Notes: generated by a model from the sequence alone, not told the origin. A stretch of 6,038 nt of DNA from Nanopusillaceae archaeon (GCA_049973735.1 JBMFJL010000034.1:1-6038), one strand, 5' to 3'. Shown: positions 1,468-6,038, counted from the first letter of the stretch. Made by a program: numbers and translations.

Positions 1468-1785
1468 ATGTCGATGATAAGGATAAAGATGTGGAGTACC
1501 GATTTGAAAACATTGAATCAATTTACTAATGATTTATTAAAAATTATACAACAACTTGGTATTGAAAAGAGAGGACCTGTTAATTTACCGACAAAGGTTA
1601 TTAGAATACCAACAATGAGAACGTTGGGAAAGAGAGGAACAAAGATATATGAAACATATCAGTTAAGAATATATAGAAGATTCATAGATGTAGCTAATGA
1701 TGAGAGATTCTTTAAAAACTATTTCATAAATATGAAAATTCCATCAAGAGGATTTAGAATATCGTTAAAGATAATAAATAAATGA
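1468..1785 (+). CDS. rps10: 30S ribosomal protein uS10 (S10p/S20e)
   Basis: 105 aa. 'IRIKMWSTDLKTLNQF...GPVNLPTKVIRIPTMR...YQLRIYRRFIDVANDERF' is colinear with archaeal S10 (ARIKL-S-x-x-x-x-L ... GP-x-PLPTK ... ELRIHKRLIDI-x-ADE). Its TGA stop overlaps the nop5 ATG (ATGA at 1782-1785). An alternative start exists at Met3 (1474). Confidence 0.9.
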   Translation: MSMIRIKMWSTDLKTLNQFTNDLLKIIQQLGIEKRGPVNLPTKVIRIPTMRTLGKRGTKIYETYQLRIYRRFIDVANDERFFKNYFINMKIPSRGFRISLKIINK

Positions 1786-3461: not shown

Positions 3462-4448
3462 ATGGAATTAGACAAAATTCTGGGAAATATATATAATAGT
3501 TTTAGTAGAATAAAAGAAAGTCTTGAGAATAACTTTAATCTATATGATAAAAAGTCGAGATTCTATTCAGGAATTTCTAAAAGATTTTATACAATAAATA
3601 GAAGTACAGAAAGATTTTTATGTCATGTAGATCGTATATTTAAAGAAACAGAATTAAAATATATATCAAAAGTTTTACAAAGAGAGCCATTAAGTGTACC
3701 TATAGTTTTCGCAGGACTTTATTTATTATATTATACAAATCCGGAAGCATTTTATGCAGTAAATACTGGTTTAGCAACTTTTATTACTGCAAATGCAATT
3801 CATTATATGATATCAAAAACAAAACCCATACCTGCAGAACATATACCAATTGATTATAAATATCTGGTATTCAAACCTTTAGAAATTTATAAAAGTGGGA
3901 AAAATCCAGGATTAAGGGCAGGATTGTTGGATATCAATGGACAAGTAATTGGAGAATATATATTGGAATTTGAGAAATCTGGTAATTTAAATAAGAAAGT
4001 ATTGGATTCTGGAATAGAAATACTACCTTATATGAAAAAAGTAGCAGAATTATTTGACAGATGGGGATATGATAAATATAATACGACAAGTGTACTATTT
4101 GCATTAGAAAATAAAAATATATTTACTTCTCCATGTAATTCAAAGAGATTAATAATTAAAGATAATGATAACTGGAGTTATATAATTTTACCAAGTTTAA
4201 GGATACCCCAAATAACATATGGATTTGAAACTGGAAAATTTGAAGTAATTAAACCGTCTAGGTCAAATGAATTGATTGAGGATGAAGTAATACAAAAATT
4301 GATGATATTACGTGTAATGGCTCTTGATATTACAAATAATTTATATGGACCAGTAGTAGTTAAAGTTGATATGGATGATAATACTTATCATTTACCAGTA
4401 TTCTTTAGTAATGTAGGATTTAAACCATGTAGTATGACAATAAAATAA
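3462..4448 (+). CDS. Hypothetical membrane-hairpin protein, paralog A (unknown family)
   Basis: 328-aa ORF starting 25 nt after the flpA stop on the same strand. Coding status is supported by full-length colinear similarity to the downstream ORF 4655..5728. Shared blocks include the N-terminus M-x-L-D-x-x-x-G-x-I...KESL, PxPA[ED]H[IL]P, YLVFKP, NGQxIGxYILExE, NWSY, PQxxYxFETG and [IV]EDxxIQK. I recognise no known domain. Confidence 0.85.
   Translation: MELDKILGNIYNSFSRIKESLENNFNLYDKKSRFYSGISKRFYTINRSTERFLCHVDRIFKETELKYISKVLQREPLSVPIVFAGLYLLYYTNPEAFYAVNTGLATFITANAIHYMISKTKPIPAEHIPIDYKYLVFKPLEIYKSGKNPGLRAGLLDINGQVIGEYILEFEKSGNLNKKVLDSGIEILPYMKKVAELFDRWGYDKYNTTSVLFALENKNIFTSPCNSKRLIIKDNDNWSYIILPSLRIPQITYGFETGKFEVIKPSRSNELIEDEVIQKLMILRVMALDITNNLYGPVVVKVDMDDNTYHLPVFFSNVGFKPCSMTIK
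3687..3812 (+). other. Predicted hydrophobic helical hairpin of paralog A (aa ~76-117)
   Basis: 'PLSVPIVFAGLYLLYYT' and 'AFYAVNTGLATFITANAIHYMI' are separated by the short turn 'NPE'. Basic residues flank both sides (..KVLQRE / SKTK..). This suggests an in-out-in hairpin with both soluble domains on the same, probably cytoplasmic, side. Judged by eye, not with a predictor. Confidence 0.5.
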
Positions 4449-4492
4449 TATTAAATCATTATAAAATAAAGATAGTCTAAAATAAATACTGT

Positions 4493-4502
4493 TATTTTTT
4501 AT
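4493..4502 (+). terminator. Oligo-T tract downstream of paralog A (candidate terminator)
   Basis: 'tattttttat' (T6 at 4495-4500) lies ~45 nt after the TAA at 4446-4448. It is the first T5+ run on the + strand after the rps10-nop5-flpA-paralog A string. Confidence 0.3.
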
Positions 4503-4623
4503 CATACACCATTTTAAGTAGATAATTTGTAAGCTTAGCAAAACTATAGTAAATGTATATCTTAGATGCTAAGAGTAAATTAATAAATTTAAATGTATTC
4601 TGTTACTTTTAGTTAATAATAAA

Positions 4624-4647
4624 TCTTTTAAATATTTTTTTAAAAAA
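4624..4647 (+). promoter_or_regulatory. Candidate TATA box(es) for paralog B
   Basis: 'tcttttaaatatttttttaaaaaa' contains 'ttttaaata', centred ~25 nt upstream of the ATG at 4655. That spacing fits a leaderless or near-leaderless archaeal transcript. No SD motif is present. Confidence 0.3.
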
Positions 4648-4654
4648 TAATTTT

Positions 4655-4879
4655 ATGAGTCTAGATGAGGTAGTAGGACGTATAAAAAAGGGTCGGGCAG
4701 AATTAAAAGAAAGTTTAGATACATATCTTAGTAGGGTAGGATCAACAATTGGTTATGGAATAGATAAATTGAAAGAAAATGTAGAAAAGTTTGGAAGTTA
4801 TTTGAATAATATAAAATTAAAACTTGATAATGCAATTGATAAATTGGAAGAAGGAGCAAAAGAATTGGGAGGTTATTTG
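4655..4879 (+). repeat. Three tandem 75-nt (25-aa) repeats encoding the N-terminal helical region of paralog B
   Basis: Each unit ends in 'YL', exactly 25 aa apart (Y24L25, Y49L50, Y74L75). Units 2 and 3 share I-D-K-L-x-E-x-x-x-x-x-G-x-Y-L ('GIDKLKENVEKFGSYL' / 'AIDKLEEGAKELGGYL'). At the DNA level 'gataaattg' occurs at 4763 and 4838, 75 nt apart. Unit 1 ('...AELKESLDTYL') is more diverged. Confidence 0.55.
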
Positions 4880-5728
4880 AGAAAGGGTACTGAAAAAATA
4901 AGGGAATATGGACCAATAATAAAAGCATCCGCTAAAAATTCTTTGCCATTACCAATAAAAGCAGCAATTGCTGGTGGAACCGGTTTGGCAGGATACTTAA
5001 TATTAGAAGGAAAGGTTTCTCCAAAAGTTGCTGCAATAATTGGTGGAGTTGCTGCAGCTGCTGCGATCGCAGGTTATTATGCATTAAGAACATTTGCACC
5101 ACAGTATGTTGAAAAACCAGTACCTGCAGATCACCTACCAGATTACATATATCTAGTATTTAAACCAGAAAAAGTTATTGAATATGGAGAAAAAACAAAA
5201 TTGGAAGCAGAATTGCTTAATCCAAATGGACAACCAATAGGAAAATATATATTAGAATATGAATCAACGACGACAGATCCTGATAAATTGATGAAAGATG
5301 TAAAAAATCTATTTGCTAGAGATGGATTCGATATTACGGTACTGTACGTGGTAAAAAATGGAGATGTATATACATATCCAAGTCATCCGGAAATTCTATT
5401 AGTTAAGAATAATAATTGGACTAACTGGAGTTATGTACTTGTTCAAACTTCACATGTACCACAAACAGCATATGCATTCGAAACTGGAAATATCAAAGTA
5501 GTTATACCATCTATAGTAAATGGATTGGTAGAAGATAAAACAATACAAAAATGGAGACATTTACAAGCAGTAGCGAATGCTATGGGAGGTGGTTTGGAAC
5601 CAATAAGTGTGATACAGGTAAAGATAAATGGTAAGGAATATACTATACCAGCATATTTCACTGAAAGTCGCTTTTCGCTATATAAAGATGCATGGCAGCA
5701 ATATTGCAAAGAAATAGGAGGATGTTAG
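4655..5728 (+). CDS. Hypothetical membrane-hairpin protein, paralog B (unknown family; N-terminal 25-aa repeats, Gly/Ala-rich hairpin)
   Basis: 357-aa ORF ending in TAG. It is colinear with ORF 3462..4448 at roughly one-third to 40% identity by eye over the C-terminal ~200 aa, with ~50% identity in the conserved blocks. Short DNA-level identities persist, e.g. 'tatctggtattcaaacc' (3861) vs 'tatctagtatttaaacc' (5150), and 'taactggagttat' in both copies. Confidence 0.87.
   Translation: MSLDEVVGRIKKGRAELKESLDTYLSRVGSTIGYGIDKLKENVEKFGSYLNNIKLKLDNAIDKLEEGAKELGGYLRKGTEKIREYGPIIKASAKNSLPLPIKAAIAGGTGLAGYLILEGKVSPKVAAIIGGVAAAAAIAGYYALRTFAPQYVEKPVPADHLPDYIYLVFKPEKVIEYGEKTKLEAELLNPNGQPIGKYILEYESTTTDPDKLMKDVKNLFARDGFDITVLYVVKNGDVYTYPSHPEILLVKNNNWTNWSYVLVQTSHVPQTAYAFETGNIKVVIPSIVNGLVEDKTIQKWRHLQAVANAMGGGLEPISVIQVKINGKEYTIPAYFTESRFSLYKDAWQQYCKEIGGC
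4943..5086 (+). other. Predicted Gly/Ala-rich hydrophobic hairpin of paralog B (aa ~97-144)
   Basis: 'LPLPIKAAIAGGTGLAGYLIL' and 'VAAIIGGVAAAAAIAGYYAL' are separated by 'EGKVSPK'. Small-xxx-small (GxxxG/AxxxA-like) spacing recurs. This is a locally GC-rich patch ('gctgcagctgctgcgatcgcagg') in an AT-rich gene. Confidence 0.5.
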
Positions 5729-5741
5729 AAGATTGATAAAT

Positions 5742-5765
5742 AAATACAATTTTTGTATTTTTTAT
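5742..5765 (+). terminator. Hairpin plus oligo-T downstream of paralog B (candidate terminator)
   Basis: 'aaatacaa' (5742-5749) and 'ttgtattt' (5753-5760) form a perfect 8-bp inverted repeat with a 3-nt loop. It runs into a T-rich tail (T6 at 5758-5763) and starts 14 nt after the TAG stop. Confidence 0.4.
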
Positions 5766-5810
5766 TATATTTCTATTACATAAGGAAATCCGAATGTTAC
5801 TATAATCCAA

Positions 5811-5864
5811 TTTAAATATAATATTCCTTTTTCTCTGCCAGACCCTGCAGATATAAATATAAAT
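5811..5864 (+). promoter_or_regulatory. Two TATA-like boxes upstream of the GC-rich RNA-like island
   Basis: 'tttaaatata' at 5811-5820 and 'atataaatataaat' at 5851-5864 lie in a 150-nt non-coding gap just before the compositional switch. Their spacing would place transcription starts near ~5841 and ~5885. Tandem promoters are common upstream of archaeal stable-RNA genes. Confidence 0.3.
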
Positions 5865-5927
5865 GGTTGTTTTTGTTAGTAGGTTATTTGGTTATTCAAG
5901 TGTTTGGGGTGGTTTGGTTTTTCTTGA

Positions 5928-6038
5928 CTGCGCCGGGGGGTTTAGAGTGTATGATCTGCGGAGGCGCCGGCCCGCGCATAGAGGCGGCGCACGGCGCGGC
6001 GGTGTGGGCCGTCGATAGGGGCTTTGCGGAGGGCGCGG
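5928..6038 (+). ncRNA. 5' part of an unidentified GC-rich structured RNA locus (possibly an rRNA leader/processing stem or another stable RNA), truncated by the window end
   Basis: My hand count is ~74% GC over 5928-6038 and ~80% over the last 80 nt, against ~25-30% elsewhere. No ORF is present. G exceeds C on the + strand. G:C-only stem potential exists, e.g. 'ccgcgc' 5972-5977 with 'gcgcgg' 5994-5999. The + orientation is favoured because TATA-like boxes lie upstream and the - strand has no oligo-T after 5928. Identity and strand are not established. Confidence 0.45.

Follow-up and report, generated by a model that had tools for sequence, protein, structure and literature searches.

The 6038-base stretch of DNA analysed here (the window) constituted the entire contig of a Nanopusillaceae metagenome-assembled genome, and its G+C content ranged from 20% to 37% per 500-base segment before a GC-rich tail. 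This study deals with two adjacent open reading frames (ORFs) on its plus strand, gene A (ACP5G1_02690, nt 3462..4448, 328 aa) and gene B (ACP5G1_02695, nt 4655..5728, 357 aa), both taken from the ORF list and each identical (100%) to an NCBI hypothetical protein of Nanopusillaceae archaeon. An earlier reading of the same DNA without database searches, hereafter the original prediction, had described the pair and had supposed a reduced, possibly host-attached archaeon, in agreement with the NCBI label; the two ORFs had the lengths it gave, and the motifs that it quoted were all recovered in place, including PIPAEHIP (3825-3848), PVPADHLP (5117-5140), YLVFKP (3861 in A and 5150 in B), and PQITYGFETG (4206-4235). 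It had further described A and B as colinear from end to end. In BLASTP, residues 121-320 of A and 154-340 of B shared 76 identities in 202 positions (38%, 133 bits, E-value 9e-41), whereas the N-terminal resemblance (MELDKILGNI..IKESL versus MSLDEVVGRI..LKESL) went undetected by this program and became apparent in Smith-Waterman alignment, with a score of 52 against 26.7 +/- 4.6 for shuffled sequences, a value reached by 1-2 of 2000 shuffles. Homology thus extends over the whole length of the two proteins, and A and B are real, colinear paralogous genes.

The duplication had been considered old and the genes to be under selection, and both views were upheld. In the family alignment, which includes a relative from Caldivirga described below, domain identity was 40% between A and B, 35% between A and the Caldivirga protein, and about 42% between B and the Caldivirga protein, and A carried private insertions of 10 aa and 4 aa. 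Since the Caldivirga protein resembles B more closely than A and lacks the insertions of A, the A/B duplication probably predates the transfer to Caldivirga. Comparison of B with a second relative, P0002, which is 90% identical to B across the domain, gave synonymous (dS) and nonsynonymous (dN) divergences of 0.23 and 0.054 for the domain, that is, a dN/dS ratio (omega) of 0.23; omega was 0.14 for aa 154-300, and the estimates ranged from 0.14 to 0.30. These values support purifying selection on the B-type domain.

The C-terminal domain, of approximately 205 residues, follows a proline-rich linker with the pattern K-P-[VI]-P...Y-x-Y-L-V-F-K-P. In A it occupied aa 118-328 (nt 3813..4445, plus strand; 38% identical to B, family profile match 9e-95); in B the linker (APQYVEKPVPADHLPDYIYLVFKP) and the domain, delimited by the family alignment and an AlphaFold2 (AF2) model, occupied aa 148-357 (nt 5096..5725, plus strand). 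That this domain could not be assigned to any family or fold, as originally noted, held true for family libraries, PDB sequences, and Foldseek alike. Pfam, NCBIfam, PHROG, and PADLOC contained no match for A, B, or the Caldivirga protein, and the hits to DUF808, KleE, Apolipoprotein, BLOC1_2, and TIGR04205 in these library scans were sub-threshold and were dismissed as noise. PDB sequences searched with the family profile yielded nothing below E 0.015, the best match spanning 40 residues. When 1.84 billion cluster representatives were searched exhaustively with the domain profile in HMMER, only three clusters scored at E<=1e-10, namely those of A, P0002 (253 aa, together with B), and P0004 (231 aa); weaker matches (E 3e-8 to 7e-4) were to long proteins with Big_2/Big_1 domains, discussed at the end, and to P0008, a repetitive non-Ig protein of 721 aa, which was not retained as a family member. 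Word-index protein searches returned A, B, P0002, and P0004 only, but one of them overlooked P0002, which shows this index to be incomplete. GTDB genomes, JGI metagenomes, and IMG/VR, scanned by pattern and by tblastn, contained no further loci; exact look-ups of A and B gave no match on other contigs, and nothing on this A/B family was found in the literature searched by accession numbers, Nanopusillaceae, and the Nanobdellota attachment organelle. It is therefore highly likely that A and B represent an orphan family.

The domain had also been expected to be beta-rich. With an alignment of four sequences, one of the five AF2 models of the B domain reached a mean per-residue confidence (pLDDT) of 74 and a predicted template modelling score (pTM) of 0.76, the other four remaining near pLDDT 40. 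The best model contained 11 strands, in line with the expectation, but also 4 helices, in the order beta3-alpha-beta4-alpha-beta-alpha-beta2-alpha, and is consequently described as alpha+beta rather than all-beta. Single-sequence AF2 of the whole B protein (pLDDT 50) predicted two helices over the hydrophobic region, with an unreliable C-terminus. Foldseek searches of the B-domain model against PDB and BFVD gave no match at E<=0.001; the best had E-values of 0.018 (PDB) and 0.009 (BFVD) with template modelling (TM) scores below 0.3. Partial matches to OB-fold-like structures (HIN, Mop, SSB, and LEF-3) were rejected, having TM scores of 0.13-0.43 with root-mean-square deviations of at least 5.5 A.

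Cys, His, Ser, and Asp were absent from the invariant columns of the domain, which contained just two Glu and were rich in aromatic residues (Y15, Y17, F20, Y49, Y111, Y124, F126, and Y180). Because residues of catalytic type are missing from these columns and aromatics abound, the domain would be better suited to binding than to catalysis. A module exported to the pseudo-periplasm that acts as an enzyme or handles solutes, for instance by modifying glycans or binding substrates, with no part in cell contact, would likewise combine a membrane anchor with a compact alpha+beta domain, and conserved aromatics occur in sugar-binding sites; nevertheless, without a conserved catalytic-type residue set, a match to an enzyme or binding-protein family or fold, or an adjacent transporter or glycosylation gene in the window, such a role appears quite improbable.

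In front of the linker, both proteins possess a charged helical N-terminal region followed by a hydrophobic region. The N-terminal region of A (aa 1-72, nt 3462..3677, plus strand) had 32% charged residues and was homologous to that of B, which was amphipathic with repeated G-x-Y motifs and 36% charged residues (aa 1-95, nt 4655..4939, plus strand); residues 3-93 of B formed one long helix in single-sequence AF2, with a pLDDT of about 83. A "double hydrophobic hairpin" had been reported between the N- and C-terminal parts. A hairpin-type layout was indeed present, with two predicted helices and a short turn (TNPE in A and EGKVSPK in B), but it was weaker than described: in Kyte-Doolittle (KD) plots with 19-residue windows and the usual threshold of 1.6, three of the four segments stayed below the threshold and only the second segment of B passed. 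The hydrophobic pair of A (aa 75-116, nt 3684..3809, plus strand) consisted of SVPIVFAGLYLLYY, the turn, and AFYAVNTGLATFITANAIHYMI. Segment 1 of B (LPLPIKAAIAGGTGLAGYLIL, aa 97-117, nt 4943..5005, plus strand) was Gly/Ala-rich with a short uncharged core, a KD maximum of 1.41, and a summed Hessa deltaG of +5.5; a helix was predicted at 99-117, and the segment was missing or recoded in P0002. Segment 2 of B (VAAIIGGVAAAAAIAGYYAL, aa 125-144, nt 5027..5086, plus strand), with a KD maximum of 1.81, was the best membrane-spanning candidate; P0002 and the Caldivirga protein each have a single membrane helix, and it aligns with this segment.

The architecture of these two relatives bears on the topology. 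The Caldivirga copy starts with MRR, followed by a 22-residue hydrophobic helix (KD 3.19) and then by the domain, and P0002 has a K/R-rich tail of net charge +4 (MAEFVARHLAKYKGKISPK), a single membrane helix, and the domain. By the positive-inside rule, the positively charged flank of a membrane helix stays in the cytoplasm; with a single N-terminal anchor, the domain of these two proteins is therefore predicted to lie outside the cell. A search for an archaeal class III (type IV pilin-like) signal was unsuccessful, since the TIGR04205 match fell on internal residues 119-146 of B with 14.4 bits (E 0.029) against a cut-off of 65, and no K/R-G/A cleavage motif was found in the Caldivirga or P0002 copies. 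The charge contents pointed in the same direction as the anchors: charged residues made up 32-36% of the A and B N-terminal domains and 28-36% of the cytoplasmic proteins of the window, versus 22-25% of the A and B C-terminal domains and 13% of the Caldivirga domain. The latter further had 29% S/T/N/Q, 9% Tyr, and three N-x-S/T sequons, whereas its soluble neighbours were 18-33% charged. A low-charge composition rich in S/T/N/Q is usual for exported proteins of acidophilic crenarchaea. In B, a model with the second helix as the only span leaves all net positive flank charge inside.

The original prediction had placed the N- and C-terminal domains on the same, probably cytoplasmic face, with A and B shaping or tethering the symbiont membrane from within. 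Several observations fit such a hairpin and weigh against an exposed domain. The helix pairs predicted in A and B have very short turns, and the hydrophobic cores of the first segments, 13-16 residues long, are comparable with those of monotopic hairpins. In A, the 19-mer maxima of the two segments (aa 75-91 and 95-116) were marginal (KD 1.24 and 1.02), and the flank charges of +1/-1/+1, that is, net positive outer flanks with a negative turn, favour a true hairpin. The N-terminal region resembles, at a sub-threshold level, amphipathic lipid-binding helices (Apolipoprotein, E 0.0087). The cytoplasmic reference for the charge comparison of A and B comprised four proteins, and if A and B had two membrane spans, their domain would be cytoplasmic. 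On the other side stand the strong single signal anchor directly before the domain in the homologues, the exported-protein composition of the Caldivirga domain, the inside location of the positive charge in the single-span model of B, and the difference in charge content between the N- and C-terminal domains of A and B themselves. Because of the single-anchor homologues and the charge contrast, exposure at the envelope is more likely than membrane shaping from the cytoplasm, and a hairpin with both domains inside seems rather doubtful. An N-in/C-out arrangement with the C-terminal domain of A and B outside the cell is somewhat favoured by these sequence features.

The family is not confined to the nanoarchaeal lineage, contrary to what had been proposed, since it occurs also in Caldivirga and on a GC-rich archaeal contig. 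WP_291999234.1, annotated as hypothetical in Caldivirga sp., belongs to the 90% cluster of P0004, and its gene was present in five assemblies, including chromosomal contigs of 38.6 kb and 65 kb, both with the same context of thiolase, UbiA, UbiD, molybdopterin oxidoreductase, and ABC transporter genes. It starts 184 nt past tRNA-Gln(TTG) and lies in an islet of about 1.3 kb with 30-40% G+C amid surroundings of 45-50%; its G+C at third codon positions (GC3) was 0.30, the lowest of the locus (others 0.39-0.53). Owing to the low-GC islet, the lowest GC3, and the retention of a B-like 3' flank (see below), the Caldivirga islet looks acquired from an AT-rich donor. Neither an integrase nor an att-like direct repeat of the tRNA end was found near this copy. 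As a further observation, the tetrapeptide FETE was present in four of the five Caldivirga assemblies, and FETG in the remaining one as well as in all other members of the family (L003 10474-10485 compared with L002 684-695).

P0002 was encoded on a 1.5-kb contig, L001 (GCA_023270135.1). To its left was an ORF with G+C of 0.64/0.48/0.83 by codon position, a GC-rich coding signature, and to its right an AT-rich spacer of 165 nt followed by another GC-rich frame; the GC3 of 0.83 in the left neighbour compares with 0.18 in the 3' part of P0002. Residues 105-357 of B aligned to residues 1-253 of P0002, so that the start of P0002 falls within the first hydrophobic segment of B. As an in-frame stop is located 21 nt upstream of the P0002 ATG and a TTTAAAAAA box 18-27 nt upstream, P0002 appears to be a complete gene as assembled. 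Its composition and divergence were uneven. The first 55 codons had a GC3 of 0.42 and the remainder 0.18, and comparison of L001 474-1235 with window 4994-5728 gave a dS of 1.16 for this first part (helix and linker), 0.15 for aa 154-300, and 0.49 for aa 301-357, or 0.15-0.49 for the remainder, the sequence downstream of P0002 diverging from the window by about 0.02. In 60-nt bins, identity between L001 and the window was successively 0.5-0.68, 0.87-1.0, 0.75-0.82, and 1.0. A variable block at window 5596-5715 spans GGGLEPISV...TESRFSLYK; it may represent either a recombination tract or a surface patch that is hypervariable. The exact 17-mer CCGCGGCGGCGGGCTAC was seen twice in L001, at 261-277 in the GC-rich upstream region and at 565-581 in the membrane-helix codons of P0002. 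The peptide fragments encoded by the flanks in L001 and in the window had no match in the protein collection, families, or structures.

The 3' flank of B (nt 5767..5829), about 60 nt of non-coding sequence, was conserved with that of the Caldivirga gene (L003 10707-10765), the local alignment scoring 33 against 20.4 +/- 2.6 for shuffled sequences (0 of 500 reaching 33), and it was 100% identical to L001. It could be a terminator, a regulatory element, or sequence that was merely co-transferred. Beyond it, G+C leaps from about 25% to about 75% over the last approximately 140 bases of the window. This GC-rich tail (nt 5895..6038, plus strand), which may be non-nanoarchaeal, held an open frame from an ATG at 5951 to the contig end, with G+C of 0.76/0.66/0.86 by codon position over 29 codons, and it recurred downstream of P0002 in L001 at 92-100% identity. 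It contained no Rfam families, tRNAs, or unusual folding energy, and its exact 22-mer was absent from the three collections searched. The AT-to-GC junction is common to two assemblies about 2% apart, and nanoarchaeon-like DNA must therefore adjoin GC-rich DNA in at least one real genome. In the simplest reading, the 3' part of a B-like gene, along with its flank, entered the genome of a GC-rich organism, and the assembly of the window ran from nanoarchaeal B into the flank of that organism, giving a chimeric contig end; otherwise, GC-rich DNA may truly adjoin B in the nanoarchaeal genome.

The shortness of L001 (1.5 kb), its mosaic identity to the window, and the GC-rich end foreign to the rest of the window contig raise the question of whether the non-nanoarchaeal copies are products of misbinning or chimeric assembly, which would leave a purely nanoarchaeal family. 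L001 could be partly chimeric, which counts against the explanation proposed below, and its left junction may have been created in assembly, where the KPVPADHLP..YLVFKP motif is conserved. The Caldivirga copy, by contrast, lies in five independent assemblies, on the 38.6-kb and 65-kb contigs in an identical housekeeping context, and being only about 42% identical to B, it does not derive from stray nanoarchaeal reads. Together with the recurrence of the junction in two assemblies about 2% apart, this makes a general artefact very improbable, and sharing of the family between symbiont and host by transfer is likely. Regarding its direction, the GC3 of A (0.13) and B (0.16) matches that of the housekeeping neighbours (0.17-0.26), so the two genes are native to the nanoarchaeal genome; because the other copies are AT-rich islets in GC-richer genomes while A and B are compositionally native, the transfer points from symbiont to host.

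A vehicle for this transfer might be a virus, plasmid, or integrative element moving among thermoacidophilic archaea, in which case the proteins could be its cargo, serving perhaps in its envelope, in receptor binding, or in exclusion, and their distribution would reflect that of the element rather than the symbiosis. The patchy spread over three very different genome compositions, the Caldivirga islet of 1.3 kb directly after a tRNA gene, and the movement of approximately 60 nt of 3' flank along with the gene are what such cargo would leave. A 28-nt imperfect inverted repeat also brackets P0002 (L001 388-414 and 1398-1425, the right copy recurring at window ~5893-5920); with 23 of 28 positions matched and a score reached by 1 of 500 shuffles, in low-complexity regions picked post hoc, it is a weak sign of a mobile cassette. 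However, no integrases, att-like direct repeats, or element genes were found near any copy, no relatives were present in IMG/VR, GenBank phages, PLSDB plasmids, or PHROGs, and A and B have a housekeeping operon context and a native codon composition; cargo of a mobile element is accordingly an unlikely explanation.

Candidates for such a transfer have been published. Jarett et al. 2018 (Microbiome 6:161, PMC6142677) found Yellowstone Nanoarchaeota co-sorted with Thermocladium, Caldivirga, and Vulcanisaeta, and by their account no Thermoproteales had previously been implicated as potential hosts. Four unannotated proteins were listed in that paper as having probably moved between clade 2 Nanoarchaeota and Thermocladium. 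In Table S9 of that paper, nanoarchaeal residues 101-351 align to host residues 5-252 with 74% identity, a second host paralogue has 71%, and neighbouring genes match too. As with B and P0002, a long nanoarchaeal protein has C-terminal approximately 250 residues that correspond to a full-length partner of about 250 aa, both being annotated as hypothetical, and the host is of Thermoproteales type or another crenarchaeon; in contrast, the paper gives no tandem A/B pair, no domain architecture, and no structural or topological analysis. Judged by alignment geometry alone, which has to be set against the explanation offered below, these candidates are probably members of the A/B family, and earlier work has probably flagged the family already as a transfer candidate, without analysing it.

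Upstream of A, the plus strand carried in order the genes for arginyl-tRNA synthetase (ArgRS), uS10, aNOP56, and fibrillarin, followed by A and B. The ArgRS gene (nt 3-1313) was truncated by the contig start to the C-terminal 436 residues, covering positions 181-608 of 613 in the model. Pfam detected just its DALR anticodon-binding domain, the catalytic core being too divergent for the Pfam model. The uS10/aNOP56 and aNOP56/fibrillarin pairs overlapped by 4 nt (ATGA, window 1782-1785 and 2765-2768), the three genes making up a tight operon. The start codon of A is 25 nt past the fibrillarin stop, and A may be co-transcribed with the uS10-aNOP56-fibrillarin operon. In the A-B spacer (nt 4449..4654), inspection of the sequence revealed an oligo-T run after A (4492-4502) and A/T-rich TATA-like boxes (4626-4648), 20-29 nt 5' of the B start codon. 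Archaeal rules suggest that the former would act as a terminator and the latter as a promoter, and because of these boxes B probably has a promoter of its own; a scan for bacterial-type promoters and terminators was uninformative for this spacer. The 3' flanks of A (4479-4506) and B (5738-5769) had in common AAATAAATAC..TGT.TATTTTTTAT.ATA, including oligo-T runs, and the A/B duplication apparently took in this terminator-like flank.

Based on the above, we propose the following explanation. A and B would each keep a charged amphipathic helical N-terminal region in the cytoplasm; within the Gly/Ala/aromatic-rich hydrophobic region, the second helix would be the true membrane span and the first would lie in or along the inner leaflet, and the proline-rich linker would carry the alpha+beta domain of about 205 residues to the outer face of the membrane. 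The domain would have passed from AT-rich nanoarchaea to crenarchaeal genomes, namely those of Caldivirga, a GC-rich archaeon of the L001 type, and probably Thermocladium, and in the transferred copies it would sit directly behind a single N-terminal signal anchor. It is envisaged as a non-catalytic binding module of the cell envelope, with the symbiont-host contact zone as its most plausible place of action, where the N-terminally shortened host copies might either pair or compete with the symbiont proteins. Taken together, and with the binding role at the exposed envelope included, we assign this explanation a probability of roughly 40%. The contact zone is suggested because the domain is duplicated in the symbiont, has been captured more than once by crenarchaea, including one putative host genus, and is probably surface-exposed; a role in symbiont-host contact is nonetheless a tentative proposal. 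More speculatively, the ectodomain might be a recognition module that sets partner specificity, with shortened copies, captured repeatedly by host genomes, serving for docking or as decoys against attachment, and a locus that recombines repeatedly between symbiont and host, as the mosaic L001 would suggest. In that case, an equally speculative step, the partner of the symbiont's A and B on the host might be either this domain itself or an envelope ligand that both recognise.

Reduced archaeal genomes commonly encode orphan membrane proteins, and the pair described here should be seen against that background. We know of no established mechanism by which nanoarchaea recognise and dock onto their hosts. 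For nanoarchaeal docking, Wurch et al. 2016 (PMC4935971) could point only to "conserved predicted membrane proteins". The A/B locus would provide a concrete and clonable candidate for symbiont-host interaction, its function being proposed from sequence. If the domain is exposed and binds the host envelope or itself, it would offer a molecular handle on host range, and, if the proposal is true, the family would exemplify gene flow from symbiont to host that affects the contact interface. Otherwise, it still constitutes a new membrane-protein family, possibly with a new fold.

Comparison with known systems revealed limited resemblances. The domain has one beta-hairpin motif in common with Big_2 (PF02368) and Big_1 (PF02369), the local pattern L-x-A-x-[LV]-L-[ND]-x-N-G-Q-P-[IV] with an alternating strand after it, and in the bacterial proteins with 5-9 Big_2/Big_1 repeats that were matched at E 3e-8 to 7e-4, each repeat matches one beta-hairpin motif. 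In contrast, there is no Pfam Big match in A, B, or the Caldivirga protein, and the model of the A/B family has four helices among the strands. Membership of the Ig-like (Big) domains was rejected, an hhalign comparison with seven Big_2 repeats giving a probability of 34.6% over 32 columns only, and the resemblance is that of a common local motif rather than of Ig-domain membership. In the N-terminal region, B has a long helix, charged and amphipathic, over its first 95 residues, like those of Apolipoprotein A1/A4/E (PF01442) and ApoLp-III (PF07464); the scores of B, 16.2 bits (E 0.0087) against a cut-off of 90 for the former and 13.3 bits (E 0.09) against 36.3 for the latter, were too low for assignment, A had no match, and the Caldivirga and P0002 copies lack the N-terminal region altogether. 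Searched against PDB, residues 13-72 of B (window 4691-4870) gave uniform weak matches to influenza HA2 (E 0.04-0.1); they are followed by a fusion-peptide-like Gly/Ala-rich segment. A relationship to the HA2 coiled coil was discarded, as the best of these matches (HA2 33-92, 17.5 bits, E 0.04) was sub-threshold and probably compositional.

A purely conceptual parallel is the TraA/TraB system of myxobacteria. The bacterial protein TraA combines a PA14-like domain with Cys-rich repeats and a sorting tag at its C-terminus, and there is no sequence or fold relation between TraA/TraB and A/B. TraA/TraB are homotypic, polymorphic surface receptors for outer-membrane exchange, which are needed on both cells and whose alleles are transferred, and Nanoarchaeota, for their part, must obtain membrane material from their hosts.

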